Positions 3,380 to 63,776 of a DNA stretch of 64,000 nucleotides are shown here, one piece after another; position 1 is the first letter of the stretch, and each line of letters begins with the position of its first letter. Below the pieces are notes generated by a model that saw nothing but the letters and a program-made list of their open reading frames with translations, made no database searches and was not told where the DNA came from. The stretch lies in IMG/VR virus record IMGVR_UViG_3300010338_000756, one strand, 5' to 3'. The position numbers and the translations under genes were made by a program. This DNA comes from an uncultured virus (IMG/VR IMGVR_UViG_3300010338_000756) (taxonomy: Duplodnaviria > Heunggongvirae > Uroviricota > Caudoviricetes).

Positions 3380-3605
3380 CCTGCTCTTCGTACTCGACGA
3401 TGACCCGGTGCTGCTCTTCAATCACGTCCTGAGCCGTGGATCCAGCCGGCAGAGTGACCGCCCGCAACCGCTTGCAGGCGGCAGGCTGCGGCACGGGGAC
3501 CGGAATCTCAACGATCCGGGGCGGCTGCACTGCCACCGGGCCGGCGCAGCCCATCAAGGTAAGGTTCAGGTAGGCTGATACGCAGGCAATCGAAGCGCGG
3601 TTCAT
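3360..3605 (-). CDS. Putative o-spanin (Rz1-like lipoprotein)
   Basis: Lipobox-like LTLMGC, Pro-rich linker; overlaps the 3' end of the i-spanin in another frame; start uncertain. Confidence 0.65.
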   Translation of the reverse strand: MNRASIACVSAYLNLTLMGCAGPVAVQPPRIVEIPVPVPQPAACKRLRAVTLPAGSTAQDVIEEQHRVIVEYEEQVKQCAR

Positions 3606-6314: not shown

Positions 6315-6794
6315 TCACAAATTTTCGTCGATGCGAATCCAAGGGGCATTGACCCCTCGCAATGAGTCTCGCACTGCCCTCATGGCGAGGCGCGAGGATG
6401 TTACCATCCACGTCCCGTTCGGGCCGGCCATGTTGCGACTCAGGCCCGGCGCAATGCAGCCGATGATGTCATACCAGAAGTTCCCGGCGTGAATGAGGAT
6501 CAGGGTCCGTGTCGCATCTTCGCGACCCTCGGGAACGTCCGACGGCAGGTAGTACACGTCCAGTTCCGGGTTCACCAGCGCCCACACGCGATCCCCGGAC
6601 GGCCGGGTGTGCGATCGCAGCGTGTACGTGCCCGGCGCAATGCAGGATACGTGCTTCTCACCAGACCGGCCGCCATGCTGATTCGGCACCCATGTCCGCT
6701 CGATGGTGTGCAGCACTGCACCGTCCGGCAATGTGAGTCGCCCGAGCGTGCAACGCCCATCCCGGTGATCCCTGAGTAACGTCAGCCCGGTCAT
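6315..6794 (-). CDS. DUF5675-like protein, putative endolysin
   Basis: L.R....CTLGRL, TIER.W, SCIAPGTY, ILIHAGN...D..GCIAPG, SRLAM; first gene of the lysis cassette. Confidence 0.75.
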   Translation of the reverse strand: MTGLTLLRDHRDGRCTLGRLTLPDGAVLHTIERTWVPNQHGGRSGEKHVSCIAPGTYTLRSHTRPSGDRVWALVNPELDVYYLPSDVPEGREDATRTLILIHAGNFWYDIIGCIAPGLSRNMAGPNGTWMVTSSRLAMRAVRDSLRGVNAPWIRIDENL

Positions 6795-15700: not shown

Positions 15701-18700
15701 CGGATCAACCCCGACTCTCCCGGGGCGCCAGCGGGCACGATTCGCCGCCTTCTGCATCCGCTCGACGAATTCCTCGTCCACGTTGCTCGTGTAGAACGGA
15801 TTGCGCAGGTTCAGGTACACCGGGATCACGCCCGGTTGTCCGCGGTTCACATCGACGAATTGCACCTTGCGCGTGTCGATGCCGGCGAGTTTCAGGACTT
15901 TCAGGAAGTCCACTTCATTCCTGAACAGCGTCCCCGAGTTGAGCCACAGTTCAATCGCCGCCTTCAACCCGTTGCCGCGCGCTTCTCTCAGTGCCCAGTC
16001 ATACGTGTCTGGCGACAGGCCGCCGCCTTTCCCGTTGTCCTGAATCTTCGTGCCATCCTCGTCGTACCCGATGCGTCGCATCGCGTCGTTGAATGCGTTG
16101 CGCTGCTCATCGGTCATCGTGTACCACGTGAACGTCAGCGGCTGGCGGGTCGTGACGCCCGGCACGGCGACCGTGAACCACTGGTCGTAGCCTCGGTCGT
16201 CCAGTGACGTGTCGCGCTTGTTGATCGCATAGCCCGATGCAACGTCCGGATCGTCGGTGAAAAACGGCATCGGCCCGGACGTGGCCCGGCCGGCGCGGAA
16301 GCGATCTACACGATCCAGTCGCTCGGTGCCGTGGTACAGCCGCAGCGGCTTGCCGCGCGTGTCCACCACCATCGAGGCTCGGGTGCCCTTCGCGTCTCGC
16401 AGCCATGCCGCCAGACTGCCCGGCACGGGACGGCCCGAGTCCAGTTCCTTCTGCGAGGTTACGTCGTGGTCGTAGTAGATTTCCTCGTTCTGCGACCTGC
16501 GCGTGACGATCTTGACGAACTGCGTCTCGCCGTTCAGGCGGACCTTCACGCCGTAGACGTTGTAGCCCTTGACCGCCTCAGTATCCCCGCCCTGCGGGGC
16601 GCGCTCTTCCAGCAGCACTGCGGATTTCATGAGCGGCTGAATCGCTTGCAGCGTCTGCGCGATGCGACGATCCGCCCCGTGGAAGCGAGCCTTCTTGAGC
16701 CCGACCGCAGTGAAGCGCACCGTGTCGCCAGTTTCGGTGACAACCGACGTGCCCTGAATGTTCAGTCTGTAGAACTCGGTCGTCTGCTTCCACAGGTCCG
16801 GGGTGGCAAGGTCCGTCTCCGCAGGAAGCACCACCGGAACTTCGGGGAACACCGTCAGGTGACGAAGCGCGTGCGCTCGCCGCCAGTCCCCGAACCACTG
16901 CTTGAACCCGTCGCTGTATATGGACCCCGCCGCCCGCACGCGGCGAACCAGCGACGGGGATTCGGTCGAAAACTCGCCGGTATTTCCGACCGCGGACTTC
17001 ACCTGCGACGGATCGAAGATCGCATAGGCGAGATGCGTGTTCCCGTCAGGACCGATGTCCGAGATGATGATGCTGTCGTATCCCTGCCGCTGCGCATCGC
17101 GCGGAACGTCCCATTCGTCCAGCACTTTCCACAGCGGAGCGTCCGGATTGCTCAGGAAGTCAATCGCGTCGTCCGCTGTCTCGTCTGCACCGAATATGCC
17201 GAGCCCCTGCAACTTCTCGAACAGGCGCGTTGGCGAAGGAGACTCACCAAGATCGCTCAGGTCGAGCGGCTTGAGCATTCTGGCGTACACAGGATAGATC
17301 GACTGCCCGAGCCCTTCCCGCGCCTGCGCCTCAAGCTCTTCCAGCGGAACCTCATCCAGTTCCCGCTCGTCCTCTTCCTCGCGCTCGGCCTTGTTCTGCA
17401 CGGCCGCCCGTGTCGCGTACTGCCCCGCAACGTCTCGATCCGGCGTCAGCCAAATCGGAAACGTCGGGCCACCGTAGAACTCCTCGAAGTCCTCGGATGT
17501 GCCGTGGTACAGGACCAGCGGTTTGCCGTCGTCATCGAGCGCCTTGGACGCCCCGAACCAACGCTTGAATGCCGGCGTGCGCGTGATCTCGTCGCGGGTG
17601 CGACGCATCAACGGCCTGCGGCCTCGCGGCACGCGGTACATATCGGTATACAGCGACAGCTCGGCTCGCTTGTTGGCGCCTTGATTGAGGGTGAACCCGA
17701 ACCTGCGATAGAACTTCCGCAGGCGCCGGCGCGAAGTCGTGCCCCACGAACCGGCCCGCATGTCCCGCTGCGCCGTCTGCAACTCGATCTCTAGGCCGCG
17801 GTCGTCGGCGAACTCGGTGAGCGCCTTCATGGCTGCGCTGCCACGGCCCGCATTCCGGTCGCGCTTTGGCACCACGATGCTTTCCAATTCCAAGGTGCCC
17901 CTCGGAGTCACCTGGACGGACAACTCGCTCAGGCCATACCTGCGCTTGATCTCGTCCGCGAACGCATCGGCGTCGGCCTGCGATGTCTCACGCCGCGCCG
18001 GCTTCGTTACAGCCGCCCTGCGCACACGGCGACGCATCGAGTTGCCCACGAAGTCTATCTGTCCGGCCGCCATCCCAACGTCGGATGGCCGCTCACTGCC
18101 GGTCAGACGAAAGTCCTTGGCCTCTTCGTCCGCCTTCTCGCGTTGTTCCGGCGTCGGCTCGCGCTCCCGGGCCTTGTCCGCCAGACGCTGCGCCGTGCTC
18201 GGCTCCGAGGTCAGCTCGAATGGCGCTTCGCCACTCTCGCGAGTTCTGCGACGAGGAACCGCTTGCGCTTCTTCGCCGGCAGCCGACGCAACAGCGCGGA
18301 CATCTTCTCGACCCGCTTTGCCAGTAACGGACTCATATTCATCGGCCTGCGCGCTTTGTCGCTCACGCTCGAACCATTCATCGGCAGCTCTCTCTTCTGC
18401 GATCAGAAAGTCGTGGTATGCCTCGATGTCGTCCCCGGTCAGCGATCCGCGAATCTCGCGCGCGGCTTCACTCAGCGCCTGATAGTCCGCCGCGACCTGT
18501 TCCGCGTCACCATGCACCGCACGATCCGCCGCTTCGGCCATGCCGGCAATGACCCGGCGTTCCCGCGCGTTGAGCTTGCCACCGCTCAGGGCGCGCTCGA
18601 TGACCTCGGGATAATCCGCGTTCTGCGGCAACCGGGTGCCCAACTCCTGAAACCATGGCTCCTTCGGAATCCATTTCGTCCGGCTCACCACGTTGTAGTC

Positions 18701-22286: not shown

Positions 22287-23324
22287 CTACCCCTTGTCCG
22301 TTCCCTTCAAGGCCAGCGATCCGCCACCAGTGAAATAGGCCGCTGCCACCGTCGTCACAGCGCCGAGCACTTGCCCCAACGCATTGCCGGATTGCTTGGT
22401 CGTGCTCGTCTGGTGAACCTCGCCCTCCGTGGTCGTGACCACGCCATGCGGCACGGTCGAAAGCGTGCGCAACAGCGGGTCGAGATTCGACACCGACCAG
22501 TCCCGGTTTTCCACGAACTGCTGATAGTCGAAGTCGAGCCCGGCCTGCTCCACGAGGCGGCCCACTCCACCCGTCACCATGAGGTCTTGAATCTGCTCGC
22601 GGTTCATCCGCGAGATGTCACCGCCCGTCTGGCGCCACGCATCCGCGACCCGGGCCAGCCGCTCGTTGTCGCTCCTCCATGCATCGAGCGCGGCACCGAA
22701 CAGCTTGCCGTACCCTTCCGCCGTGGCCCGCCCCTCGGCGCGCTCGGTCTGCCAGTCCTGCCGGGCCTGCTGATAGGCCGCCGCCATCGTCTTGCCGGTC
22801 GTCTCCGCGACCGCGCGGTTGTGTTCGCGCTCCAACTGGCTTTCCAGCATCGTCGCCCGCTCGCCGCCAAAGGCCGATACCCGGGCCGCGTTCCCTCGCA
22901 GGTCGGCAAGCTGCTGGCTGTAGTTCTCGTTCAGTTCCCGCAGTTGCGGGTCGAGCACCTGACGGATGTAGGGGTTCATGTACCGATCCGCGTCGAACGC
23001 CACGTCAGACGCCTCAAGGCGGCTGCGCGCACGATCAAGGTCGGTGTTCTGGAAGGTGTTGCCGTGCAACTCGTCGAGCACGTCACCGCTGCGGCGCACG
23101 ATGTCGGCGCCCTCGGTGTTGTTGGCAAGCTGCTGCGCCCGCCGTTCGCCTGCGGAAAGGCCAGCGACACGCTGCCCCGTGTAGGGCGTGTACTGGCGGG
23201 TCGCGATGTCCCGGGCGAGCCCTACGGCCTGCTGTGAACCCTGCTCAAGCCACTCCGGCAACTTGACTTCGGATCGCCCCCGACTCGTCTGGTCGGTTTT
23301 CGTTGTGCGCTTCTTGCTTCCCAT
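22287..23324 (-). CDS. Putative internal virion (DNA transfer) protein
   Basis: MGSKK.TT start, YTPYTGQRVA and YMNPY motifs, Gly/Ala hydrophobic C-terminus. Confidence 0.7.
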   Translation of the reverse strand: MGSKKRTTKTDQTSRGRSEVKLPEWLEQGSQQAVGLARDIATRQYTPYTGQRVAGLSAGERRAQQLANNTEGADIVRRSGDVLDELHGNTFQNTDLDRARSRLEASDVAFDADRYMNPYIRQVLDPQLRELNENYSQQLADLRGNAARVSAFGGERATMLESQLEREHNRAVAETTGKTMAAAYQQARQDWQTERAEGRATAEGYGKLFGAALDAWRSDNERLARVADAWRQTGGDISRMNREQIQDLMVTGGVGRLVEQAGLDFDYQQFVENRDWSVSNLDPLLRTLSTVPHGVVTTTEGEVHQTSTTKQSGNALGQVLGAVTTVAAAYFTGGGSLALKGTDKG

Positions 23325-30225: not shown

Positions 30226-31998
30226 TCAGTTCAGCCCTCGTATCACGAAGCCACGCACCACAGCCCGGTCGCCCGTGCTCGCCGCCGCAGGCGGCTCCGG
30301 AGGCGCCGTCGTGGACGAGAAGGTATCACTGATCCCGCCGATGGTCACAACCGTGTCCGTGGTCGTCGAAACCGCCGCCGCTGTCGTGTGCCGCGCGCGC
30401 ACCGTGTCGCCCGCCGACACCGTACCCGACACCGACACGAAGGAACCGCCGTTGATCGAATACAGGCCGCCCGTGACGGAAATCGCCACTGAGGCCGTGA
30501 TCCCCGTCACGGTAATCGCCGCCGACGTGACCACCGTGCTCTGCGGCTGGTAGTACAGGTCGGTGAACGTGAACGGATCGGGCGAGAGCTGATCCCGTGT
30601 GACACCCGGCGCATACCCCGTCAGCGTGAGCGCCCCGACCTCTGGCGTCACCGAGAGGTCGTCGTACACCTGAATCGTGATGGTCGGCGCATGACCCGAG
30701 ATCGACAGCGAACCGGCGCCCGGCGCGATGGCGTGCAATTGCGACACGCCCACGCTCGGCGCATACCCGGTGAGCGACAGCGATGCCACCCCCGGCGCGA
30801 TGGTCCTCGATTGACTGATCGATACGCTCGGCGCATACCCGGTGAAGGCAAGAGCGCCAACCCCCGGCGTCTGGTAGATCGGCGAAGCCACCGTGGGCGC
30901 GTAGCCAGTGAGCACCAGCGAGCCCGCCGCGGGAGGCTCCACGCCAAGCTCCTGATCCGGCTCGCTCCCCGCGAACGTCAGCGCGCCAGTCCCCGGCGTG
31001 ATCGTCATCGAGGACGAAATGCTCACCCCCGGCGCATAGCCGGTGATCGTGGCCGCTGCCGCATCCGGCGTCTTCGCAACATGCGCGCCGGACTGCACAT
31101 CCGGTGTGTAACCCGTGATCGTGGCAGCACCAGCGCCCGGCACAATCGTCGCGTGCGCGCTGCCCTGCACATCCGGCGCGTAGCCCGTGATCGTGGCCGA
31201 TCCAGCCCCCGGAGTGATCGACGCATTCGCACCCGAATTCACGGTCGGCGCATAGCCGTCGAGCACGATGGTCCCGACGCCCGGCACGATCAGAATGTGA
31301 TCCGAAGCCGATGCGGTAGGCGCATACCCGGTGACGATCAGCGATCCGACGCCCGGCTTGGGACCGCCGCCAATCGGCGGCTCTTCGCTCGATGTCGCGG
31401 CTCCGACGATGGTCGGCGTATTGCCGTTACCGCTCCAATCCGTCGTGTCCGTCGCATTCGCCAGCGGCCACGACAGTCGCAGGTTGGATGTCCGCGCAGC
31501 AGGAGTACTGCTGCTCGGCGTCATCTCGAACTCGGCCGTAATCTCCGCAGTCGAGAGCGCCGCAGACCACTCTCGCACGTAGCGGAAACACCCGAGCGCA
31601 TTGACCCAATCCGAGTTCGCGCCGCAGCTCACATCAACAATGTTGTCGCTGCTGGACCAATTGACCGAGTACACGCTCGACAGCGTGCCCCCGGAATAGA
31701 TGAAACTCGACCAGTCTCCCGTCGAGTGATCGTATCTCAGCGCCAGACCCGCCCAATCTCCATTGCTGAGATTGGTCGTCGCGCTGCTCGCATAGTTCAT
31801 GTACGCGGAGATTTGCGTCGAGGATTCAATCTCAAACTGGATGTATAAACCGGCCTTCCCTAATACGAGAATTACCTGCCCAGACGTGCTGTCGTTCTTT
31901 CGATACCACCCCAACAGCGTCCCTGTCGGCGTGGACCCGAAGGAACTCGCGCCCGTTCTGTAGACTCGTGCGCTACTGTCGTCTAATTCAAGCGACAT
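30226..31998 (-). CDS. LamG/ConA-like domain plus S/T-rich repeat virion protein
   Basis: VREWSAALS.AEI..E and DWSGNGN motifs, followed by 11 PG.G.L..TGYAP repeats. Confidence 0.7.
   Translation of the reverse strand: MSLELDDSSARVYRTGASSFGSTPTGTLLGWYRKNDSTSGQVILVLGKAGLYIQFEIESSTQISAYMNYASSATTNLSNGDWAGLALRYDHSTGDWSSFIYSGGTLSSVYSVNWSSSDNIVDVSCGANSDWVNALGCFRYVREWSAALSTAEITAEFEMTPSSSTPAARTSNLRLSWPLANATDTTDWSGNGNTPTIVGAATSSEEPPIGGGPKPGVGSLIVTGYAPTASASDHILIVPGVGTIVLDGYAPTVNSGANASITPGAGSATITGYAPDVQGSAHATIVPGAGAATITGYTPDVQSGAHVAKTPDAAAATITGYAPGVSISSSMTITPGTGALTFAGSEPDQELGVEPPAAGSLVLTGYAPTVASPIYQTPGVGALAFTGYAPSVSISQSRTIAPGVASLSLTGYAPSVGVSQLHAIAPGAGSLSISGHAPTITIQVYDDLSVTPEVGALTLTGYAPGVTRDQLSPDPFTFTDLYYQPQSTVVTSAAITVTGITASVAISVTGGLYSINGGSFVSVSGTVSAGDTVRARHTTAAAVSTTTDTVVTIGGISDTFSSTTAPPEPPAAASTGDRAVVRGFVIRGLN
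30590..31360 (-). repeat. About 11 degenerate 21-24 aa TGYAP repeats
   Basis: Counted in the translation. Confidence 0.85.
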
Positions 31999-32001
31999 CT
32001 G

Positions 32002-33021
32002 TCATGCCTCAGCGTGCTTGTACAGGTAGAACCAGCCCGTGTCGGTCGCTTGCCGGATGTATGCTGTGACACCATGCTCCGGAATCTCGCACGCGATCAT
32101 GTGATAGCCTGAGCTGCCGAATACTGCAGGCGGAACCCGCGAGCCAGTCAATTGCGTCCATGTCCCTGACCCGGTCGGGTCCAACTCGAACAAATTCCCC
32201 CCTGACAAGCACAGGAAATTTCCACTCACCGGATCACACGAGAATAGCCCCTTATAAATGCCAATCGAACAATTCGCCGGACACGACGTGAGCCCCGTGA
32301 TCGTGCGATCCGAATTCACTCGCCATGCTTGACGCGGTGCGCCGCTGCCGCCGCCCCACACGGCGCAATTGTGTATCGGGCTGTATGCCATAACGGTGTG
32401 GTATCCGCTTCCAGACAACGAAGGGCCACTGCTCGTGAACCACGAGTCACCGACAGGATCGTATCCGGCGACGTTATTGAAGTCACCATCGCAAATGAGG
32501 AAGATTCCCTGACCACCGTGCGCAGGCGTCATCGAGCCAGTCCACCAGCAGGTTCCAGTCGCAACTTGTAGGTGGATCGGAATCGTCGATAGGTTGTTGT
32601 CCCAAGATGGCCCGCCATATTGGAACCGCCAAATTCGCTGGCCCGTGCCGTACCCATATGCCCGGTAGTAGATGTCGCCGTTTGTGGGATTCACTTCGTA
32701 ATGGTCATAACCATGACCATCCGCAGTGCCGATGTTGTTGACGAAGCTCCATGCATTCGTCGCGGCGTCGTACCGCACGTAGCGCATGTTGCCCCATCCG
32801 TGATACTGCGCTATCACTTCGATTCGCTTGGAGATCGGATTCCACGTCCCGGCGTTGCAGTACACGATCATCGTGTCTGCACCACCCGGCCACAGCACAG
32901 CAGTCTGTCCGGAGACACCTGTCAACTCAGCCCACGTACCAGCAGACATGGACGCCGCAAGCGTCCCGAGTGCGGACGATGCTCCTGTCACTGATACCGA
33001 AAATGCGTTGCTCTGTGCCAC
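32002..33021 (-). CDS. Beta-propeller (Kelch-like) protein, probable receptor-binding or accessory virion protein
   Basis: Recurrent YD..TN.W / YDP..D.W blades; visibly lower GC. Confidence 0.6.
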   Translation of the reverse strand: MAQSNAFSVSVTGASSALGTLAASMSAGTWAELTGVSGQTAVLWPGGADTMIVYCNAGTWNPISKRIEVIAQYHGWGNMRYVRYDAATNAWSFVNNIGTADGHGYDHYEVNPTNGDIYYRAYGYGTGQRIWRFQYGGPSWDNNLSTIPIHLQVATGTCWWTGSMTPAHGGQGIFLICDGDFNNVAGYDPVGDSWFTSSGPSLSGSGYHTVMAYSPIHNCAVWGGGSGAPRQAWRVNSDRTITGLTSCPANCSIGIYKGLFSCDPVSGNFLCLSGGNLFELDPTGSGTWTQLTGSRVPPAVFGSSGYHMIACEIPEHGVTAYIRQATDTGWFYLYKHAEA

Positions 33022-33022
33022 G

Positions 33023-36734: not shown

Positions 36735-36767
36735 AGAAGAAAAGGCGCCGGAGTCACCCCCGGCGCC
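36735..36767 (-). terminator. Rho-independent terminator after the major capsid gene
   Basis: Minus strand GGCGCCGG-loop-CCGGCGCC followed by TTTTCTTCT. Confidence 0.7.
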
Positions 36768-43838: not shown

Positions 43839-43915
43839 CTGGGCGTAGTTCAGTCTGGCAGAACGCCTGCCTTGGGAGCAGGAGGTCGCAGGTTCAAGTC
43901 CTGCCGCCCAGACCA
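43839..43915 (+). tRNA. tRNA-Pro (anticodon UGG)
   Basis: Acceptor stem CTGGGCG/CGCCCAG, A discriminator, encoded CCA; anticodon arm CCTGC-CTTGGGA-GCAGG; T arm GCAGG-TTCAAGT-CCTGC; 77 nt. Confidence 0.95.
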
Positions 43916-49204: not shown

Positions 49205-49284
49205 AGCGGGCATTGGGCGGCGTCCACGGGGCGATGAGCACGAATGGACATAGTGTCAGGCACAACACGCGCCGCGGAGTGAGT

Positions 49285-49692
49285 CTACCCCGAGCCGTAC
49301 ATCCAGCGCAACGCATCGGCCGGATCGAACAGCCGTTCACGCACCGTGCAGACCACAGCCGGAGGATCGCACGGCGGGCCCTCGCGCACCTCTAGCCGTC
49401 GCACCTGCCTGTCGTTGCGGATCAGGCGCCCGTTCGCGAGCGCGTCCAGAAAGGGCTTCACCCTGTTGTCGAGGTCCGAGATTCGCGCGAATCTCGGACT
49501 GAACTGCACCAGCATCTCCACCTCGACCGGATTCGGGGAATCATAGACCGCCCGGGCTTCCCACAGTTGCTCGCGCACGGCCCGCTGGTAGCTCTTCCCG
49601 GGCCGATCCACGTAGGTCACGGAGACGTGTCGTCCCTGCTTTCTGGAGTAGATGACTGCGGTTCGCCAATATTCGTTCGCGGAGGGAGGCAT
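49285..49692 (-). CDS. rusA: RusA-family Holliday junction resolvase
   Basis: PPSAN.YWR, DLDNRVK..LDAL, NDRQV; start uncertain. Confidence 0.85.
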   Translation of the reverse strand: MPPSANEYWRTAVIYSRKQGRHVSVTYVDRPGKSYQRAVREQLWEARAVYDSPNPVEVEMLVQFSPRFARISDLDNRVKPFLDALANGRLIRNDRQVRRLEVREGPPCDPPAVVCTVRERLFDPADALRWMYGSG

Positions 49693-50171
49693 CGGGAAGG
49701 CGACTCGCTCAAGTAGCGTGCGATGCGTGCCCGTACCAGCATCGAGGCCCACTGCCACGCCAGCGCCCACGGGCTGTACCCCAAGATGTCCTCGACCCTC
49801 GTCAGGTGATCCACTTGATCGCCGAAGGTCTGCTCCCACGTCACCGCACCAATCCCGCTGTCGATCCCGAAGCCCCCCACGTGATAGTGCGCGTGCAGCG
49901 GTATTTGCAGGCCCGGATTCTGCCTCTGACCGATGCCGGGCACCCCGAACGGGGTCGCCGCCATGGACCCGCCCCGACAGTGATGCAGCGTCACAGGCCG
50001 CCGTCCACTGACCACGCAGCGCAGCGTTCGGAGTCTTGCTTCGTGTTCGGCGACCGAACTTGGCAAATGCACCCATTCGGCGATCCTCGCACAGTCCGGG
50101 TTCTCGCAGAACTCGCCGCGCGTGAACGGACAGGCGTCCGGTTCCATGCAGCGGCAGGTGAGCGCGGTCAC
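49617..50171 (-). CDS. Ref/DUF968-like HNH-type nuclease
   Basis: CVVSG....LHH, G.GQR....IPL...YH.G..GI, WEQ.FG. Confidence 0.65.
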   Translation of the reverse strand: MTALTCRCMEPDACPFTRGEFCENPDCARIAEWVHLPSSVAEHEARLRTLRCVVSGRRPVTLHHCRGGSMAATPFGVPGIGQRQNPGLQIPLHAHYHVGGFGIDSGIGAVTWEQTFGDQVDHLTRVEDILGYSPWALAWQWASMLVRARIARYLSESPSRCLPPRTNIGEPQSSTPESRDDTSP

Positions 50172-51157: not shown

Positions 51158-52679
51158 TTCGCTGCCTCGACTTGGCCGCGCGGATCATGCGACTGCGCAC
51201 GTAGCGCATCGTCTCGATGGACGGCACAGTCGGCTCGTATGTGATCCACTGGCGCGGCGGCATGGACCCGATACGATCCCGATAGCAATAGGCGGCAAAG
51301 CCCGTGCGCTTGCCATACTTGACGCAATACCCCAGCAGCTCGGTGTAGAACCTCATGCGCTCGATTTCGCTCATCGCGGCCGGGCTCTTCGTCGAGATCG
51401 GCACGAGCAGTCCCTCGACCACCGTGTACTCGCGGCCCATGCGCTCGAAGTAATAGCCGCACTTCGGGCAGGTGAGCGAGCCCGAGAAGACCGTCTTGCA
51501 GTCCGGGCAGGTGAGCGAGCGCAACTCGCCGCGCTTTTTCTCGGCGGCGCGTCGCTCGCGCGCCTTCTGCTCGCGGCTGCCGTCGAGCGACCAATACCTG
51601 TCGTCGATGGCGTAGCCGTGCTCGTGTACGTTGCCGGCGTGATCGAGCACCAGCAGGTTGTGCTTGCCCGGGAACGTGCGCAATCCACGCCCGAGCATCT
51701 GCAAGTAGCGCACGACCGAGCGCGTCGGGCGCGCCATCACCACGCAATCGATCTCCGGAAGATCGAAACCATAGGTGGCGATGTCGCAGTTGCACAGCAC
51801 TTGCGTCTCGCCGCTGCGGAAGCGTCCGAATACCGCATCCCGGTGCGGCTCGCTCGCCGTGCCGTCGATATGCTCGGCCGCCACGCCAGCGGCCCGGAAG
51901 GACTGCGCGAGGTAGCTGGAATGCTCTACGTTCGTCGCGAACACCACGGTCCTGCGCCCCGGCGCGAGGTTCAACCAGTGCTGCACGATGTCGCCGAGCA
52001 GCGGTTGCATCCGCTCGCCAATATCCTTGAGGTTGTAGTCGCCGGCCACCGTGCGCACGCGAGCGAGGTCCGGCGCGGACGGCGCGTAGTATTCCGCGTC
52101 CACGAGATAGCCGTGCGTCGTCAGTTGCCGGACGGTGCCGACTTCCTGCAACTCGTCGAACAGCACGCCGAGCGCGCGCCCGTCATACCGCCCGGGCGTC
52201 GCCGTGAACCCGATGATCCGGGCCTGCGGGTAGAGCTGCAACAGCTTGGTGCGCAACTCGGTGAGGTACAGGTGCGCTTCGTCCGCGATCACGATGTCCG
52301 CAGACGGAAGCACCAGACGATCCCGCTTCACGGCCCGGGACACGAGCGTATCCACGCTCGCGACCTGCACAGGCTGATTCAGGGCGATCAGGTGTTTGTC
52401 GGTCGCCGTGATCACGCCATACCGGAACGGCGCGTGTGCGTCGAGCTTGGCACGCAGTTGCGCAATCAGCTCGTGCCGGGGAGCGAGGAACGTCACTCGC
52501 GCGCCATCACGCCGCACCGCTCGCTCGGCCACCGACATTGCGATGATGGTCTTGCCCGATCCGGTCGGGCTCGCGACGAGAATCCGGCGCGCGTTGCTGG
52601 CCTCGATGCGCAGCACGGCGCGCTTCTGGTACGGCCTCAGCTCAAGGCCAGTGCAAGGCGTGGACGAACCTGCATCCAT
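51147..52679 (-). CDS. SF2 (DEAH) helicase with C-terminal zinc ribbon
   Basis: LRPYQ, SPTGSGKT, DEAH, TATP, GFD.P, QM.GRGLR, CPDC..CPKC. Confidence 0.92.
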   Translation of the reverse strand: MDAGSSTPCTGLELRPYQKRAVLRIEASNARRILVASPTGSGKTIIAMSVAERAVRRDGARVTFLAPRHELIAQLRAKLDAHAPFRYGVITATDKHLIALNQPVQVASVDTLVSRAVKRDRLVLPSADIVIADEAHLYLTELRTKLLQLYPQARIIGFTATPGRYDGRALGVLFDELQEVGTVRQLTTHGYLVDAEYYAPSAPDLARVRTVAGDYNLKDIGERMQPLLGDIVQHWLNLAPGRRTVVFATNVEHSSYLAQSFRAAGVAAEHIDGTASEPHRDAVFGRFRSGETQVLCNCDIATYGFDLPEIDCVVMARPTRSVVRYLQMLGRGLRTFPGKHNLLVLDHAGNVHEHGYAIDDRYWSLDGSREQKARERRAAEKKRGELRSLTCPDCKTVFSGSLTCPKCGYYFERMGREYTVVEGLLVPISTKSPAAMSEIERMRFYTELLGYCVKYGKRTGFAAYCYRDRIGSMPPRQWITYEPTVPSIETMRYVRSRMIRAAKSRQRNVA

Positions 52680-52989
52680 CTTGGTCTCGCTTCTCACCCA
52701 AATCGTAGACGACATCCACGGACGCAGCACCGTCTCGGCGCAGCGCCTTCGTGAGCCTATCGCACAACCACTCGTTGCGCCCTTTCAAGCTCGCCAGCAC
52801 CCAACAGCCACGCACGGGCCAGTGACACGTCGAGGGGTCGATGGAAGGGTCCACGATCAGGCCATCCGGGGTGAGCACGTCGCTCGCTTCGCGCAGGAAC
52901 ACCGCGTCGATCTCGCCACGCTCAACGAGCGCGCGAACACGATGCGCGTTGCGCGGGAGTCGTTGCCCGGGTTTCAGGGGTCTCGCCAC
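52642..52989 (-). CDS. Hypothetical protein
   Basis: Lies in operon upstream of the helicase. Confidence 0.5.
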   Translation of the reverse strand: MARPLKPGQRLPRNAHRVRALVERGEIDAVFLREASDVLTPDGLIVDPSIDPSTCHWPVRGCWVLASLKGRNEWLCDRLTKALRRDGAASVDVVYDLGEKRDQDGCRFVHALHWP

Positions 52990-53056
52990 CGGAATCGCCT
53001 TGTGTTGTGCCGTTTCGCAGTGTAACGGCGGCGGCCGGCAAGGTCAACCGCAGCGG

Positions 53057-53338
53057 TTACCGGAACAGGTCACGCTGACGCGGCGACCGTCGCGACGGCG
53101 CGCGACTGAACATCGGCTTCGCCGGCGCCTTGGGCTCGGCACGCTCCGGCAGCTTGCGCACGAACTCGCGCACACGCCGCTCGTGATTCGCTTCCCACTG
53201 CTCCGGGTCGCCAACGCATTCCAGACGATGATCGGCCCAGGTATGCGGATGCACGGGCACCCACCTGCCAGCGCGCAGTTCCCACGAGATCGGATCAGCA
53301 CACCACTTGCAGCGAGCCATGCCTGCATCATAGCGCAA
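53057..53338 (-). CDS. Hypothetical protein with CxxC...H...C motif
   Basis: ARCKWC.DPI.W...GRWVP...DH..EC; start may be the second Met. Confidence 0.55.
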   Translation of the reverse strand: MRYDAGMARCKWCADPISWELRAGRWVPVHPHTWADHRLECVGDPEQWEANHERRVREFVRKLPERAEPKAPAKPMFSRAPSRRSPRQRDLFR

Positions 53339-53433
53339 AACAGCCGAGAAACAACGCGAATCACGAGAATGCTGCTGTGCCGCAGCGCGGCCCGGATTAT
53401 GTCAAATCCCCGGGCCATGGGGAGGGCCGCCGC

Positions 53434-53470
53434 CCCGAGTCCGAGTCCCGAGTCCCGAGTCCGAGTCCCG
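53434..53470. repeat. Five tandem CCGAGT(C) units
   Basis: CCCGAGT-CCGAGT-CCCGAGT-CCCGAGT-CCGAGT-CCCG. Confidence 0.9.
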
Positions 53471-53584
53471 GGCGCCCCGCCGCCCCGGCTCCGGGGCCAC
53501 CGCCCCGCCCCCTGCCCCGGGGGCCCGTCTCTCCGAACCCCAAGGATCGGAGGGAGGGAGGGAGCGGCCCGGCACGGCCAGAAC

Positions 53585-54170
53585 TCCTGAGGCCGCCTGA
53601 CGGACAGCGAGGGGTCTCGCAGCCGCAGCGGCGCTCAGGTTTCCGGCTTGCGCTTGCGCGCCCGAGGACCGTCGGTCGGTCGGTCACACCCGGTCGAGGC
53701 TGGCGCGTGTTCCGCCCCTCGCTGATCGGACTTGCCCCGGGAACGCCGGGTCTCTGCATGGTGCCGATAGTCAGCCACTCTTCCCGTCGTCCCGCACAGC
53801 CTAGCATTTCAGTGCCGGGCCGAGATCGACAGGCGACCGCCCCATATCCATCGCCCGCTTTGCAGCGCCCCATCCTGCGGGCTATGTCGCGTCGAGGCCG
53901 GATCGTGACCCCGGGACCAATCCCGGGAGAACGCTTGAACCCCTGCGGCGACGGAGCGCCGTGAGGCGCCCTGTCGCGCTGGCTCGGTGATCAGGCATCA
54001 CAGCATCGGCCAGCACACGAGGGGCGATATACCGCCGCCTGATGCCCGGGGTCAACCGGCATAGGTATAAATACCTACCCCGAGGGCGCAGGTGAGGGCA
54101 CCGGCCCGGCCGATGTAGGTAGAAATACCTACCCGGCGCGGGCCGGCATGGCGACCGGGCGAACCTGCCG
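53585..54170 (+). ncRNA. Candidate large structured non-coding RNA or structured origin element
   Basis: No credible ORF over most of its length; many nested stems, two perfect 10-bp long-range helices, GTGA and GAAA tetraloops, G-U pairs favouring the plus strand. Confidence 0.45.
54062..54132. promoter_or_regulatory. Twin palindromes TAGGTA-N4-TACCTA
   Basis: TAGGTATAAATACCTA at 54062-54077 and GTAGGTAGAAATACCTAC at 54115-54132. Confidence 0.6.
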
Positions 54171-54314
54171 GACCATCGAGCAGTAGGACACCAGCTTGGT
54201 CGCGAGGTTGTCGATCTCGGGTTCCGAGCGACGCTCACGCGCAGCCAGCACCAGCTCGCGCAAGCGTTCCAGTTCAGCCGTGGTGAAATTTGTCGGGAAG
54301 CCCATGCGTTCCAC
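54129..54314 (-). CDS. Small helical hypothetical protein
   Basis: GAGGAG RBS 8 nt before an in-frame GTG that lies inside the parS palindrome. Confidence 0.5.
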   Translation of the reverse strand: MERMGFPTNFTTAELERLRELVLAARERRSEPEIDNLATKLVSYCSMVRQVRPVAMPARAG

Positions 54315-54322
54315 GTGGAACA
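54307..54322. promoter_or_regulatory. parS-like centromere site
   Basis: CGTTCCACGTGGAACA (minus strand TGTTCCACGTGGAACG); 14-bp perfect palindrome core matching the bacterial chromosomal parS consensus. Confidence 0.75.
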
Positions 54323-54465
54323 CTCCTCTGCAACTGGACCGATTCTCTCACAGCGCGCAATCCGATGACAAACACGCGACGTATCGTGTATATCCCCGCT
54401 GTTGCGTCTTGTGTCGCGTTGTGGGAGAATCGGCCTGTCAGGCAAAAAACCGCGGGAGATCAACG

Positions 54466-54729
54466 ATGAAGGTCATGCGATGGCACACGCACGAGGGCTG
54501 GCGCTGCGCAATTGTGAAGCCCGGGCGCACCAAGCTGCATGTGCTGACGATGGAAGACTTCGGGGTGCGCCATCACGCCGTACCGCTGGACGAGGAACGG
54601 CACATGCTGCCGCTCACGCATCGCGGGCGGGAGTACCCGCTGGCCCGGGCGCGGCGCATCTTCTCCGCCTTCGGGCGTGAGCGCGGCATCACGGCCGCGG
54701 CCAAGGAAATTCTTGAGGAAGCGACGTGA
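54466..54729 (+). CDS. Hypothetical protein, first gene of the rightward early arm
   Basis: GGGAG RBS; coupled to the next gene. Confidence 0.65.
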   Translation: MKVMRWHTHEGWRCAIVKPGRTKLHVLTMEDFGVRHHAVPLDEERHMLPLTHRGREYPLARARRIFSAFGRERGITAAAKEILEEAT

Positions 54730-55712
54730 TGCGATCCAGCAAGATGATGTTCTTGAGCGATTCGCACCGCCCTGCGCCGGTTGAATTCGCGCACGCCTTG
54801 CGCCGCTTCTCCGAGGATCAGAGCCAGTCGGACGAACAGCGGGTGTTCTGGTCCGCGCTGGCCGCCAGCGCCGCTCGCGCGCAGGTCTTCGATTTCGGGC
54901 GGATGCCCGACGCGGTTGTGCGGTCTGAGGCTATCCGCGGCGCACAATTCTGGTCGGCCGGCTTCCTGCGCCTGCCGTTCCCTTCGTCCCTGTTCTGGTA
55001 CACGATTGACCTTGATCGAGACAGCGACCAGCCGCTCCGAGAGCACCACATCGACAAGTACCGTTACGCGACGCTCTGCGTCGATGTCGCCGCGGTCGGC
55101 GGATTCCCGCAGCTACCGGAGAACAAGCCCTCGGTTCTCGCGGTCGATTTCATGGTGGTCCCGCCCGAGTTTCGCGTCACTCAATCGGCCCGCACGACGA
55201 TGGCTGTGAGTTGCGCCGGACATATCTGCGACTGCGACGAGGGCCGATACAGGGGCGTCGCCTACTACTCCTGCGTCGACTCGAAGCACAACAGCACGAT
55301 GCTCGGGTCGCTCGCGGACGGCATGATCAGCATGTGCATGATCCTGTCCACCCGCGGGGTGCCCACGAGGGTCGCAGAGCCGCCTGTCCGGCTGAACGCC
55401 AAGCGTGCTCGCTCAGGCAAGCCGCCGCTGGTGCGCGTCACGCACGTCGATACCGGGCTGTACTACCGCGCGCTCGCCGAGGCGGATCGGCCTCGCGGCA
55501 CGCACAAGAGCCCGGTCCCGCATCTGCGCCGCGGCCACATTCGCCGGCTGCCGTCTGGCGATACGTGGGTGCGCGACGCCGTGGTCAACGCACGCTCGTC
55601 CGCCGAGGTCGAGGCGCGCGACCACTATGACGTGTCTGCGTTGACACAGGTCGCCACACGGACTTACAGTGCAACCACGGCACAACACGAGGTACACCAT
55701 GAGCAGGAATGA
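54729..55712 (+). CDS. Hypothetical phage protein
   Basis: RLPFP near the N-terminus; C-terminal THKSP.PH.RRGH.RR...WV motif. Confidence 0.7.
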   Translation: MRSSKMMFLSDSHRPAPVEFAHALRRFSEDQSQSDEQRVFWSALAASAARAQVFDFGRMPDAVVRSEAIRGAQFWSAGFLRLPFPSSLFWYTIDLDRDSDQPLREHHIDKYRYATLCVDVAAVGGFPQLPENKPSVLAVDFMVVPPEFRVTQSARTTMAVSCAGHICDCDEGRYRGVAYYSCVDSKHNSTMLGSLADGMISMCMILSTRGVPTRVAEPPVRLNAKRARSGKPPLVRVTHVDTGLYYRALAEADRPRGTHKSPVPHLRRGHIRRLPSGDTWVRDAVVNARSSAEVEARDHYDVSALTQVATRTYSATTAQHEVHHEQE

Positions 55713-56721
55713 TGATCGGCGCCCCGAGGCGCCGTCCGAAGCGGCACTGTCCAAGCAAATTGCGGTTGCCGCCCCCGCGTTTCGATCCGCCAGTGACGCG
55801 CTCGCGCGATCCGGCGAACTGCCTCCGCTGCAATGGGAATCGGAGAGCCTGTTCGCCCTGCGTCGCATCATGGACGACCCGAACTTGCAAGCCGCTGCGC
55901 CTGACAGTCTCGTCGATGCGCTCACGACGGTCGGCAGCTTGGGCCTGACGCTGAACCCGGTGAAGCAGCACGCGGCGCTGCTGGCCCGCTATGACCGGAA
56001 GTCCGGGGCATATCAGGCGAGCGTCATGGTCATGTATCGCGGGCTGCTGTGGCTCGCGCGCCGCGCCGGCGTCCACGACATCGTGGCAGACGTGGTGTAC
56101 TCGGCCGACCGCTTCTCGCTCAAGCGCACGCACGAGGGCGATCATTTCGAGCACGAGATCGCGTTCGCGACGCCCCGGGACGGGGAGCAGAATAAGTTCG
56201 TCGGCTGCTACGTCGCCGCCACGATGCCGGGCAGCACGCTGCCCAAGGTCGAATGGGTGCCGGCCGAGGACATCTACCGTATCCGAGCGCAGTCCGATTC
56301 CTACATCGACCGCAGGACCGGCGAGGTCCGGCAGAACTCGGGGTGGGTGCGCTGGTTCGATGAATTCGCGAAGAAGGCCGCCATCAAGCGCGCCCAAAAG
56401 CGATGGGAGAGCGACAAGGCCGATTCGCCCGCGTGGACGCACTTGCAGCGCGCCGTGGACATCGACAACCGCACCGAGAAAGTGGTCGAGGATGACAACG
56501 TGATCGAGGGCACGGTCATCCCGCCTGAGCCGTCGCTGTCGCCCGAACAGGTCGCCGAGATCACGGAATACGCTGGCCCGACACTCGTGCGCAAGATCGT
56601 CGCGGCCTACGATGTCACCAAGCTGGACGAGATTCCGGCCAGCAAGTACGCCGAGATCAAGCAGCGAGTCGCCGCTGCAAAACAGATGATGGAGCAGCGT
56701 CGCCGGAGCGCCGCCCAATGA
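55699..56721 (+). CDS. recT: RecT/Bet-family single-strand annealing protein
   Basis: SLGLTLNP, YRGL..LARR, VVY..D.F, G.YV.A, W...FDE.AKK..IKR. Confidence 0.85.
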   Translation: MSRNDDRRPEAPSEAALSKQIAVAAPAFRSASDALARSGELPPLQWESESLFALRRIMDDPNLQAAAPDSLVDALTTVGSLGLTLNPVKQHAALLARYDRKSGAYQASVMVMYRGLLWLARRAGVHDIVADVVYSADRFSLKRTHEGDHFEHEIAFATPRDGEQNKFVGCYVAATMPGSTLPKVEWVPAEDIYRIRAQSDSYIDRRTGEVRQNSGWVRWFDEFAKKAAIKRAQKRWESDKADSPAWTHLQRAVDIDNRTEKVVEDDNVIEGTVIPPEPSLSPEQVAEITEYAGPTLVRKIVAAYDVTKLDEIPASKYAEIKQRVAAAKQMMEQRRRSAAQ

Positions 56722-57377
56722 GCCGCGCCGTATTCGATGATTCGCCGCAGGGATCGCCGGGCTGGCACCGCGCCCGCCGCGGCAAGATCACGGGCACCCG
56801 GATCAAGACCATCATGCACGGCACCCCGAAGGGCTGGAACACGCTGCTCGACACCCTGCGGCACGAGATCGAGCACCCGGACGCCGAGGTCGCCGATGCG
56901 CCGTTTGTGTCCGCGGACGTGGAACACGGTCGCAAGTACGAGCCCGTGGCTCGCGCCAATGCTGAGCTGCAACTGTGCGAGGACTTCGAGCTGGTCGGAT
57001 TCGCGCAGCATCCCGACTTTCCGTTCCTCGGAGTGTCGTCGGACTTCATGGCGCTGGACCGCACCGTGAACGGCGAGATCAAGTGCCCGCGCGACATCCG
57101 CAACTTCAACGCCGTGCGCTTCTCGCAACGCCTGCCGGACGAATACTACCCGCAGGTGCAGCTACAGATGTTCGTGCATGGCGTGGATCGCACGATCTTC
57201 GTCTGCCATCACCCGGACGCGGGCGACTGGCGAATCAATACCATCGTGCTGAACGTCTACAGCGACGCCGAATATCAGGCCGCGATGCTGGATCGCTGCC
57301 AAGCGTTCATGGCCGCCGTGCGAGGCGCCGCGCCCATGATCACGGACGACACGCCCGGCGTGCCGCTCATTTTCTGA
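56718..57377 (+). CDS. YqaJ / lambda-exonuclease-family nuclease (copy 1)
   Basis: QGS..W..AR.GKIT, HG..YEP.AR, G.S.D, EIKCP, Y.PQVQ.QM. Confidence 0.88.
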   Translation: MSRAVFDDSPQGSPGWHRARRGKITGTRIKTIMHGTPKGWNTLLDTLRHEIEHPDAEVADAPFVSADVEHGRKYEPVARANAELQLCEDFELVGFAQHPDFPFLGVSSDFMALDRTVNGEIKCPRDIRNFNAVRFSQRLPDEYYPQVQLQMFVHGVDRTIFVCHHPDAGDWRINTIVLNVYSDAEYQAAMLDRCQAFMAAVRGAAPMITDDTPGVPLIF

Positions 57378-61804: not shown

Positions 61805-62032
61805 ATGACAATGGTGGAATCAACGAGCGAAGCGCGCACCGTGAACAATACGATGCGGCATCAGTATCGCGTCCTTGACGAACTCGAAAAGGCGCAGATG
61901 CAAGCCATCAAAGACAAGGGGCTTGAACTGCACGAGCTGATCGAATCTATCGGTCAGTCGCGTGAACTCTCTCTCGCGAAGACGAAGACGGAAGAAGCGG
62001 TCATGTGGGCCGTAAAACACATCGCGCGATAA
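61805..62032 (+). CDS. Acb2/Tad1-like helical-hairpin protein (candidate immune-signal sponge)
   Basis: HQYR.L...E...M..IK..G and SRELSLAKTK.EEAVMWAVK.I; AAGGAG RBS. Confidence 0.65.
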   Translation: MTMVESTSEARTVNNTMRHQYRVLDELEKAQMQAIKDKGLELHELIESIGQSRELSLAKTKTEEAVMWAVKHIAR

Positions 62033-62191
62033 CCAGTCATGGCCCCAACCAGTGAGACCGCTCCCGCCCTGCAAGCCAGCACAGATTACGCAGCAACATG
62101 CTGGACAGGCATCTGTCTCCGCAGGTGGCGCACACGCCTCACACGGGTACCCCTCTCTGCGCGGGGCCTCCATTTCGGTAAGGAATGAATC

Positions 62192-62383
62192 ATGCGCATC
62201 CTGAACTTCTGGCACCGCCTGCACACCGAACTCGCCGCCCTGCAAACGGCATGGCGCGAGGACCGCGAACGCGCGCAGCAGATCAAGTACCGGCGCGCGC
62301 TGCGGAAGCGCCGCGTCGTGCTGCCGGCGCCGAGGCCGGATGCCGTCGCCGGCAACTGGTACGGCGACAGGAAGGCGCAGTAA
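62192..62383 (+). CDS. Small hypothetical protein, paralog of 827-1000
   Basis: AAGGA RBS; shared YR.AL.....VVLP motif. Confidence 0.7.
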   Translation: MRILNFWHRLHTELAALQTAWREDRERAQQIKYRRALRKRRVVLPAPRPDAVAGNWYGDRKAQ

Positions 62384-62400
62384 TCCCAATGGAGACTCAC

Positions 62401-63138
62401 ATGGCGAAATCAACCCAGGTTGTCGCGGCCGAGCCGCCGACCGAATCCGGAAACGTTCTGCAGATCATCAGCCGCGCGGCAGCCGACCCGAGCGTGGACA
62501 TCGAGAAGCTGGAACGGCTGCTCGCGATGCAGGAGCGCATCGTCGCCAAGCACGCCGAGAGCGACTTCAACGCGGCGCTGAACGCTGCGCAGACCGAGAT
62601 CGGCACGATTTCAGCCGACGCCGAGAACAGCCAGACGCGCAGCCGCTATGCGACCTACGCGAAGCTCGACAAGGTGCTGCGCCCGATCTACACGCGGCAC
62701 GGCTTCTCGCTCAGTTTCGACGAAACCGACTCGCCGAAGCCGGACCATATCCGTGTTCTGGCGATCCTAGCGCATCGTGGCGGTCACAGTCACACGTACC
62801 AGAAGGACATGCCGGCTGACGGCAAGGGCGCGAAGGGCGGCGACGTCATGACCAAGACGCACGCCGCGGGCGCCGCTGCCAGCTACGGCATGCGATACCT
62901 GCTGAAAGGCATCTTCAACGTCGCAATCGGCGAGGAGGATACCGATGGCAATGAACCGCGCGACGAGCCGCGCATCAGCGAGGACCAGGCCGCGACGTTG
63001 CAGGCGCTGATGGAGGAAGTCGGCGCGGACAAAGCGCGATTCTTCGCCTACCTCAAGATCGGCGCACTCAAGGAAATCCACGCGCGCAACTATTCGAGCA
63101 TCGTGAAGCTGCTCGAATCGAAGCGGAGACGGGCATGA
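62401..63138 (+). CDS. erf: ERF-family single-strand annealing protein
   Basis: DP.VD.EKLERL..M, FNAA...AQ, YAT, P....HG.SLSF, H..GH, G.A.SYG.RY. Confidence 0.85.
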   Translation: MAKSTQVVAAEPPTESGNVLQIISRAAADPSVDIEKLERLLAMQERIVAKHAESDFNAALNAAQTEIGTISADAENSQTRSRYATYAKLDKVLRPIYTRHGFSLSFDETDSPKPDHIRVLAILAHRGGHSHTYQKDMPADGKGAKGGDVMTKTHAAGAAASYGMRYLLKGIFNVAIGEEDTDGNEPRDEPRISEDQAATLQALMEEVGADKARFFAYLKIGALKEIHARNYSSIVKLLESKRRRA

Positions 63139-63776
63139 GCGCGCACGACGTCACCCAGGGAACTGACGATTGGCAGGCGCTGCGCCTCGGCAAGGTGACG
63201 GCCTCGCGCATCGCGGACCTCATGGCACGCACGCGCAACGGTTGGGGAACGTCGCGAGCCAACTACATGGCCGAGCTGGTGGCCGAGCGGCTGACCGGCG
63301 TGAAGACCGAGGGGTTTTCGAACGCGGCTATCAAGTGGGGCTTGGAAATGGAGCCGCAGGCGCGCGACGCCTACGCCTTCTTTGCCGATGTCGATGTCGC
63401 TCAGATCGGTTTCATCGACCACCCGCGAATCGCGATGACCGGCGCATCGCCGGACGGACTCGTAGGCGACGCCGGGCTGGTCGAAATCAAGTGCCCGCTC
63501 ACTGCCACGCACATCGAGACTCTGCTGACCGCCTCGGTGCGGGAGAAATACCTGTATCAGATGCAGTGGCAGATGGCCTGCACCGGCCGGCAGTGGTGCG
63601 ACTTCGTCAGCTACGACCCGCGCATGCCGGAACGCATGCGCTATTTCTGCCAGCGCGTGCCGCGAGACGACCGCCTGATCGCGACCTTGGAGCGCGAGGT
63701 CTCGGAATTCCTTCGAGAGGTAGCAGATAAGGTCGCCTCCCTGCAATCGAAGTATCCAGAGAGGTTGGCCGCATGA
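63135..63776 (+). CDS. YqaJ / lambda-exonuclease-family nuclease (copy 2)
   Basis: QGT.DW...RLGKVTAS, WG...EP.AR, GASPDGLVG, EIKCP, QMQWQM, WCDFVSYDPR. Confidence 0.92.
   Translation: MSAHDVTQGTDDWQALRLGKVTASRIADLMARTRNGWGTSRANYMAELVAERLTGVKTEGFSNAAIKWGLEMEPQARDAYAFFADVDVAQIGFIDHPRIAMTGASPDGLVGDAGLVEIKCPLTATHIETLLTASVREKYLYQMQWQMACTGRQWCDFVSYDPRMPERMRYFCQRVPRDDRLIATLEREVSEFLREVADKVASLQSKYPERLAA

Follow-up and report, generated by a model that had tools for sequence, protein, structure and literature searches.

The region at 53906-54150 of the 64-kb stretch of phage DNA analysed here (the window) contains a cluster of palindromes, and its strongest elements are sequence-conserved, AT-cored palindromes that look like a type serving elsewhere as protein-binding DNA sites. 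The core of this 250-bp cluster would be two operator-type sites, TAGGTA-N4-TACCTA, and the whole is read here, tentatively and at a little under even probability, as a DNA-level regulatory region within a non-coding control region of the phage. The original prediction had placed a structured RNA of 600 nt here (53585-54170, 586 nt). The tests of that proposal that could be run were neutral to negative, with the 5' 300 nt at chance level and the 3' 250 nt showing a fold. The feature belongs to no described RNA family and fits best among the cis-regulatory regions of phages.

The phage is novel, GC-rich and uncultured, comes from sludge, and represents a lineage without cultured or sequenced relatives. 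The nearest cultured phages share 37% amino-acid identity in the helicase and 42% in the terminase. The window has a GC content of 58-72% and encodes phage proteins throughout, including the terminase, portal, major head and DNA-ejection proteins, a set of replication and recombination proteins (DEAD/ResIII helicase, RecT, YqaJ, SSB, Erf and a second exonuclease), and a 4636-aa polyvalent protein with ART-PolyVal, LPD3 and LPD38 domains. The phage is probably lytic, since it has no integrase or repressor match. Its genes run leftward from about 6.3 kb to 54.3 kb and rightward from 54.47 kb, and the leftward order from this switch is orf64, a gap of about 790 bp, orf93, a 115-aa ORF and the helicase. 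Several other gaps of 0.8-1 kb are present in the window. orf64, orf87 and orf93 belong to no Pfam or PHROG family. A search of 5.8 billion proteins for relatives of orf93 returned only orf93 itself, and the ESM atlas gave no lead for orf64. For orf87 the atlas has a confident model, with fold resemblances that are weak (TM below 0.5).

The gap at 53339-54128 is non-coding, since it shows no codon periodicity and matches neither an Rfam family nor a tRNA-like gene. Its ORFs have GC1/2/3 values of 0.70/0.75/0.72, 0.76/0.70/0.72 and 0.58/0.67/0.64, compared to about 0.65/0.47/0.83 for real genes, and the three long ORFs match nothing in Pfam or PHROG. All genes neighbouring the gap show the codon-position GC pattern of the genome. 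A protein-coding signal across the region, which the original prediction had named as evidence that would count against it, is thus absent, codon-position GC being flat. The GC content across 53400-54240 ranges from 0.63 to 0.90, and stretches at or below 0.55 are found only at the promoter regions. The gap also contains simple repeats (Table 1), of which (CCCGAGT)n differs in length by one base in contigs of runs X2 and X4.

Table 1. Features in and around the gap between orf93 and orf64, in window coordinates
Feature	Position	Strand	Description
Separate promoter-like site	53047-53019		from the promoter scan
orf93	53057..53338	-	likely start ATG at 53320; GC3 0.73
Non-coding gap between orf93 and orf64	53339..54128		flat GC by codon position
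Simple tandem repeat (CCCGAGT)n	53434..53470		in a tract of 80-90% GC
Simple repeat (GGAG)4	53549..53564
Simple repeat (GTCG)4	53671-53685
149-nt element	53906..54054		perfect 10-bp inverted repeat closing three inner hairpins
Hairpin	53948..53977		12 pairs (11 Watson-Crick, 1 G-U) and 1 A-C mismatch; in the MFE fold of both strands
Putative weak promoter-like site	54026..54055	-	TTGACC-18-TATATC; just downstream of palindrome 1
Palindrome 1	54062..54077		TAGGTATAAATACCTA; AT-only centre
Direct repeat, 43 nt, two copies	54062..54158		74% identity; 54 bp apart; each copy headed by a palindrome
Long imperfect palindrome/hairpin	54101..54146		surrounds palindrome 2, which forms its apex
Palindrome 2	54116..54131		TAGGTAGAAATACCTA; AT-only centre; contains the TAG stop of orf64 (54131-54129, minus)
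orf64	54129..54323	-	first gene of the leftward early transcript; likely start GTG at 54314, after a GAGGAG motif; GC1/2/3 0.68/0.46/0.83
Leftward sigma-70-like promoter	54342..54371	-	TTGTCA-18-GAGAAT, TG motif
Rightward promoter candidate	54402..54430	+	TTGCGT-17-(TGG)GAGAAT, upstream of orf87; found by eye

The two TAGGTA-N4-TACCTA sites are the only ones in the 64 kb when both strands are searched, and 0.03 matches are expected. They lie 54 bp apart, which corresponds to five helical turns, and between palindromes 1 and 2 it is the sequence that is conserved, beyond pairing alone. Palindrome 2 is flanked by almost nothing but G and C, with a chance pairing rate of about 0.5 per position.

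All of the complementarities listed in the original prediction are present, with coordinates that are exact or 1-2 nt off. The closing helix TGACCCCGGG (53906-15) / CCCGGGGTCA (54045-54) is a 100% match and is extended by GCCGG (53897-901) / CCGGC (54056-60). Inside it are CCCCT (53940-44) / AGGGG (54020-24), the hairpin at 53948-77 with its G-U pair and a GTGA loop on the plus strand, and the hairpin at 53978-54014, which has 6+5 bp around an internal loop and is part of the MFE fold. The local hairpin CCCGGGA-CCAA-TCCCGGG (53910-27), said to compete with the closing helix, was found, as were the GAAA loop of the hairpin at 54101-46, the pairing of GCAGGT (54088-93) with ACCTGC (54163-68), and the upstream helix CAGCGAGGGG / CCCCTCGCTG. 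The alternative folds do have their complementarities, but these are ordinary 7-12-nt matches for DNA of 70% GC, and the complementarity behind the possible pseudoknot, ATCAGGC / GCCTGAT, is no more than chance expects. Perfect inverted repeats of at least 10 nt number five in 1.1 kb, where about two would be expected by our own estimate, and the long-range 10-nt inverted repeats are near chance level. The window contains no second copy of the 149-nt element. An origin of this element as a MITE or REP was rejected, since TGACCCCGGG with at most one mismatch has four matches in the window against 6.3 expected, and the exact matches are the two arms only.

The whole 586 nt folds better than its shuffles, with z-scores of -3.89 on the plus strand and -4.08 on the minus strand (none of 100 shuffles was as good on either strand). 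Tests of separate segments, with 200 shuffles each, show where this signal lies. The z-scores for the plus and minus strands are -4.19 and -3.81 at 53906-54054 (none of 200 shuffles as good) and -3.34 and -4.61 at 54055-54150. The corresponding values are -0.21 and -1.23 at 53596-53730, +0.59 and -0.50 at 53731-53880, and -0.14 and -2.47 in the very GC-rich stretch at 53400-53530. Folding beyond shuffles is seen in the 3' 250 nt (53906-54150), and the 5' 300 nt are at chance. When 217 windows of the same length from the 64 kb were compared after regression on GC, the candidate ranked first on both strands, with residual z-scores of -2.57 (plus) and -3.4 (minus) that are close to the expected extreme. 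Among 87 background windows of 149 nt, none had z at or below -3 on both strands, and one had z at or below -3.8 on one strand. A scan with 48-nt windows places the most stable local fold of the 64 kb at 54101-54148, on the plus as on the minus strand (-36.1 and -37.1 kcal/mol). Four of the roughly 33 local hairpins in the top 0.5% lie inside 53461-54148, and the 48-nt piece at 53937, which takes in the hairpin at 53948-77, belongs to the top 0.5% on both strands. The fold signal is the same on the two strands, and the G-U content shows no strand preference. The excess of self-complementarity is real and moderately strong, and it is confined to the 3' 250 nt.

The gap hairpins lie about 200-400 bp from a back-to-back pair of early promoters. 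The promoter scan of the region found two promoter-like sites against 0.2 expected. The rightward promoter of the pair remains a candidate since it falls below the threshold of the scan. TGNGAGAAT occurs in the window only at the two divergent promoter sites, both of which carry the -10 element TGnGAGAAT. The site at 54026-54055 was missed by the scan because position 6 of its -10 hexamer is not a T. A shared promoter motif GTATATC(S)CC was considered and dropped, as two exact and two one-mismatch matches make four against 1.9 expected, a non-significant excess, and alignment adds nothing. The one hit of the terminator scan in the region is a 5-pair stem within the big hairpin, where chance alone would give 0.8. 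A GC-rich hairpin directly after a stop codon resembles a Rho-independent terminator, but neither 54101-46 nor 54057-82 is followed by a T-run on either strand. The terminator that follows the major head gene of this phage consists of GGCGCCGG...CCGGCGCC and then a TTTTCTTCT U-tract, and the gap hairpins were rejected as terminators because they lack such a tract.

The original prediction had recognised no Rfam class, and Rfam 15 likewise gave no family for the feature. A scan of 52500-55500 at E ≤ 10 returned only CRISPR-DR16 at 54682-54699, outside the feature, with 17.1 bits against a gathering score of 35. At gathering thresholds the whole window gave tRNA only, and ARAGORN found no tRNA or tmRNA in the gap, the sole tRNA being a tRNA-Pro at 43839-43915. 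Searches with blastn and megablast against phage records found no match, and the gap showed no other resemblance to the remainder of the window. The flanking proteins, orf93 and the helicase, searched against viral, genome and metagenome loci, matched only the same phage at this locus. The region is matched at 100% identity by the viral record G001 (41.5 kb, 59% complete) and by the metagenome contig L121. Beyond the same phage, the helicase has matches of 31-40% identity in unrelated low-GC contigs.

Twenty public runs from 14 studies share words with the stretch. Short contigs from four runs of four studies are at least 99% identical to it, with one substitution in 403 nt and one in 553 nt, and carry too little variation to be informative. 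One low-depth contig of X2 has four G>A changes and one C>A change, which were taken as damage or error. In the metatranscriptome run X19, only a 151-nt contig at 53850-54000 was obtained of the 2.1 kb compared, and such contigs show no strand, ends or level. X2, which is labelled RNA-Seq and flagged as probably DNA, has a contig at 53849-53999. The agreement of these two contigs is at most a weak hint of RNA. Their near-identical ends were rejected as the end of an RNA, as X2 is probably a DNA library: its contig and the neighbouring one at 54008-54158 fit the two mates of one 310-bp DNA fragment.

The same motif is found in other phages. When public collections were searched for pairs of TAGGTA-N4-TACCTA sites with a distance of 20-50 nt, six viral stretches, one of them the present phage, and 19 genome stretches came up. 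The 16-mer of palindrome 1 has four to six clustered copies in each of three unrelated phage records (G002-G004), all confined to one non-coding region per record. These arrays have five sites within about 250 bp and one site 0.6-1.9 kb off, and a control with the reversed pattern gave no match in phage records. The 16-mer of palindrome 2 is paired in a fourth phage record (G005). The array sites in the other phage records are without extended stems, as double-stranded binding sites would be. Clustered operator or iteron arrays in a phage non-coding region are of the type of lambda OL/OR. The present phage resembles the arrays of G002-G005 in having identical 16-mers in several copies in one non-coding stretch, and differs in having two copies, compared to six in G002-G004, and no protein in common. 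BLASTP found no protein shared by the present phage and the other motif-bearing records, and a common regulator beside the motif in the other phages was rejected, as none was recognised with BLASTP and PHROGs.

A related bacterial core, TAGGTATATATACCTA, has a TATA centre and differs from the two phage sites at 1 and 2 of 16 nt. Pairs of this core lie directly upstream of an AbiEi-domain gene in all six loci tested (L134, L135, L141, L142, L147 and L150) of the seven found, and an AbiEii gene is present in all four loci tested for it. AbiEi, of a type IV toxin-antitoxin system, is a known autorepressor that binds inverted repeats overlapping its own promoter (PMC7319586; see also PMC3985639). 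The phage sites are like the AbiEi operators in that the palindromes come in pairs, with TAGGTA and TACCTA as half-sites around a centre of A and T only, and in their spacing, the 54 bp of the phage falling inside the 46-63 bp of the six AbiEi loci. Several of the AbiEi-locus sites also lie in longer inverted repeats, as palindrome 2 does in the hairpin at 54101-46. In contrast, the phage centres are TAAA or GAAA, no gene starts within 30 nt of the phage sites, and no abiEi or abiEii gene or recognisable remnant lies near them or in the window. Searches of the window by tblastn with six AbiEi and four AbiEii proteins, and of all its ORFs with two HMMs, gave a best E of 0.06, with no match in or beside the gap. 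A decayed abiEi gene in the gap was rejected, as tblastn with AbiEi proteins found nothing better than E = 9.9 there. Of the marks of an AbiEi operator, the phage sites show paired palindromic sites with the core sequence of the family, but not a promoter position directly upstream of an abiEi-abiEii operon. The match to the AbiEi core also has to be discounted somewhat for the look-elsewhere effect, since the search used the phage's own motif. That the palindromes are orphan AbiEi-type operators, which recruit or titrate a host AbiE antitoxin-repressor, either as a nucleic-acid decoy against an abortive-infection system or to let a host defence regulator time the phage's early-to-late switch, and which the hairpin module helps to present, is a long shot.

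In the DNA-level reading, a dimeric DNA-binding protein, of the phage or of the host, would bind the palindromes on double-stranded DNA. It might control the weak adjoining leftward promoter, or it might block read-through from orf64 into orf93, the helicase and the late genes. That both strands fold well as RNA would be a by-product of the DNA symmetry, and the 5' half of the 586 nt would be GC-rich simple repeats without structure beyond chance. The location beside the sigma-70-like divergent promoters (54342-54430) suits a control region. That a protein binds here, what kind of protein it is and what regulation results are inferred, and Pfam, PHROG and the ESM atlas pointed to no DNA-binding protein for the palindromes among orf64, orf87 and orf93. 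The operator reading accounts for 54055-54150, but not for the 149-nt element at 53906-54054, which also beats its shuffles. The extended 46-nt hairpin around palindrome 2 is not required by double-stranded binding, and the leftward promoter adjoining palindrome 1 is weak, scoring under the threshold of the scan.

The main alternative, rather unlikely, is a cis-acting RNA element on the early transcript of the minus strand. Transcription from the leftward promoter (about 54342-54371) would continue through orf64 into the gap, and the hairpins and the 149-nt module would then act in the mRNA, as a 3' stability barrier, an RNase III processing site, or a pause or attenuation site without a U-tract, separating the expression of orf64 from that of orf93 and the helicase. 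The minus strand is very probably transcribed across the gap, since both flanking genes are on that strand, and the orf64 stop codon lies right within the hairpin that is locally the most stable in the 64 kb. The segment 54055-54150 scores best on the minus strand (z of -4.61), where two G-U pairs lengthen the hairpin, and 53906-54054 folds as a closed multi-branch structure with z of about -4; however, the plus strand folds equally well, which leaves no strand asymmetry. Phage early transcripts are known to carry cis-acting RNA signals such as lambda nut/boxB, HK022 put and the T7 RNase III sites. The gap hairpins are similar to these in lying shortly downstream of an early promoter, between immediate-early and later genes, and the 20-bp stem is long enough for RNase III. 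They are dissimilar in having no Rfam or sequence match and no preferred strand, and no N-like or Q-like protein was recognised. The missing U-tract, in a phage that uses canonical terminators elsewhere, also speaks against a role in RNA, as does the finding that the two apical 16-mers are sequence-conserved and recur elsewhere without stems. Moreover, the helicase operon could be served from the promoter-like site at 53047-53019, with no need for such a leader.

The free-standing ncRNA of the original prediction is very unlikely. It could be a plus-strand RNA that starts near palindrome 1, runs through the GAAA-capped hairpin and is antisense to the 3' end of orf64, or an RNA of about 150-250 nt, on either strand, that covers 53906-54150. 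The centre of palindrome 1, TATAAAT, resembles a -10 element, but there is no acceptable -35 for a plus-strand promoter, the promoter scan found none, and no terminator lies downstream. Lambda OOP RNA is antisense to cII, and a plus-strand RNA from the gap would stand in the same relation to the upstream early gene at its 3' end, although here a convincing promoter or terminator is missing. The z-scores of the 3' 250 nt (-3.3 to -4.6) and the GNRA-type loops (GAAA, GTGA) on the plus strand are in keeping with such an RNA, whereas the 5' 300 nt of the proposed molecule are at chance and the feature has no Rfam match even at E ≤ 10. The 151-nt contigs of X19 and X2 give it a weak hint, and that of X2 pairs naturally with 54008-54158 as DNA mates. 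It is also quite unlikely that the region has no dedicated function, and that decaying or filler DNA with simple repeats and a duplicated 54-bp unit has produced the hairpins by chance and duplication. A GC content of 0.73-0.90, the length variation of a simple repeat between samples, long-range inverted repeats at chance level and the several other gaps of similar size would all fit, and the residual z of the candidate (-2.6 / -3.4), first of 217 windows, is about the expected extreme. Two AT-cored 16-bp palindromes in DNA of 65% GC, with 0.03 expected, argue against it, and so do the 87 background windows without a case of z at or below -3 on both strands and the near identity of the gap in contigs from four runs of four studies. 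Pfam, PHROG and tblastn with AbiEi proteins revealed no remnant of a decayed gene.

Other candidates were rejected. Hairpin promoters of the N4 type, for a virion RNA polymerase, do not apply, as the 4636-aa protein is without a polymerase domain. The DnaA box consensus is TTWTNCACA, and a theta-type origin was discarded with no such box in the window, no AT-rich element, and two repeat copies compared to the at least three of iterons. A protelomerase target or a CRISPR mini-array was likewise dropped: the palindrome is imperfect, such genes are absent, and the Rfam CRISPR match is noise located elsewhere.

The folding results carry a caution for RNA scans, since a palindrome cluster in phage DNA of 65-70% GC mimics a large structured RNA, with z of about -4 on both strands. 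If the operator reading is true, the feature would be an ordinary cis-regulatory region with operator sites, in a lineage of which no relative has been cultured or sequenced. What it would add is local, namely the place where a widespread sludge phage controls its early transcription. The TAGGTA-N4-TACCTA family occurs both as clusters in unrelated phages and, in several bacterial phyla, as a promoter element conserved in AbiE abortive-infection modules, and it offers a connection, open to testing, between a regulator of host defence and the control region of a phage.

Six bacterial loci (L134, L135, L141, L142, L147 and L150) have the palindrome (C)TAGGTATATATACCTA(G) upstream of an AbiEi/AbiEii antitoxin-repressor and toxin module, at about position 3000 in each. 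The loci come from MAGs and genomes of several phyla. Each AbiE locus has two to four copies of TAGGTATATATACCTA at a spacing of 46-63 bp, and perfect inverted repeats of 6-16 bp, a separate one for every copy, flank them. The abiEi ribosome-binding site of L135 falls within the last inverted-repeat arm, so the hairpin could additionally mask this site in the mRNA. In three unrelated phage contigs, CTAGGTATAAATACCTAG is present in every one of a series of 56-67-bp units, which are clustered or in tandem and lie within long non-coding stretches (see the table).

Three different AbiEi proteins gave weak tblastn matches to the same spot of the window, 3146-3304 on the minus strand (E 0.06, 0.16 and 1.4), inside one of the further gaps in which the composition-based gene call placed no gene (2668-3507). 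The matches possibly mark a remnant and are possibly noise. High folding rank was also found for the segments at 47760, 48932 and 31352. In the simple-repeat tract of the palindrome-rich gap, contigs from different sequencing runs differ in length by one or two bases (53449-53454 and 53490-53500), and part of the depth over this tract may come from other organisms with the same low-complexity repeat.

For the first rightward gene, orf87, the atlas model is confident (pLDDT 0.90), and the modelled fold bears only a weak resemblance to the RNA-polymerase-interacting domains of CarD/TRCF (TM 0.41-0.46). A canonical intrinsic terminator begins 9 nt past the major head gene. The DNA-ejection protein gene (22287-23324) adjoins the ORF of the giant polyvalent protein, and the tRNA gene is on the strand opposite to both of its neighbours. 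The rightward arm has two separate recombination modules. The same arm encodes a 75-aa protein with an Acb2/Tad1 hairpin domain, which could act as a sponge for the cyclic nucleotides of defence signalling.

Coordinates of features in the window and of palindrome arrays in unrelated phage contigs (own coordinates)
Feature	Location	Strand	Remarks
Giant 'polyvalent' protein, 4636-aa ORF	window 6791-20701	-	ART-PolyVal, LPD3, LPD38 domains
Canonical intrinsic terminator	window 36735-36767	-	8-bp GC stem then TTTTCTTCT
tRNA-Pro(TGG)	window 43839-43915	+	between portal and large-terminase genes
orf87	window 54466-54729	+	
Recombination module	window 55669-57377	+	RecT with YqaJ
75-aa protein	window 61805-62032	+	Acb2/Tad1 hairpin domain, E 4e-20
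Recombination module	window 62185-63776	+	Erf with second YqaJ-type exonuclease
Further gene-less gaps, 0.6-1 kb	window 49205-50167, 30554-31330, 2668-3507, 32444-33022		composition-based gene call
CTAGGTATAAATACCTAG clusters or tandem units	L131 2941-3260; L127 2921-3121; L130 3001-3056		unrelated phage contigs
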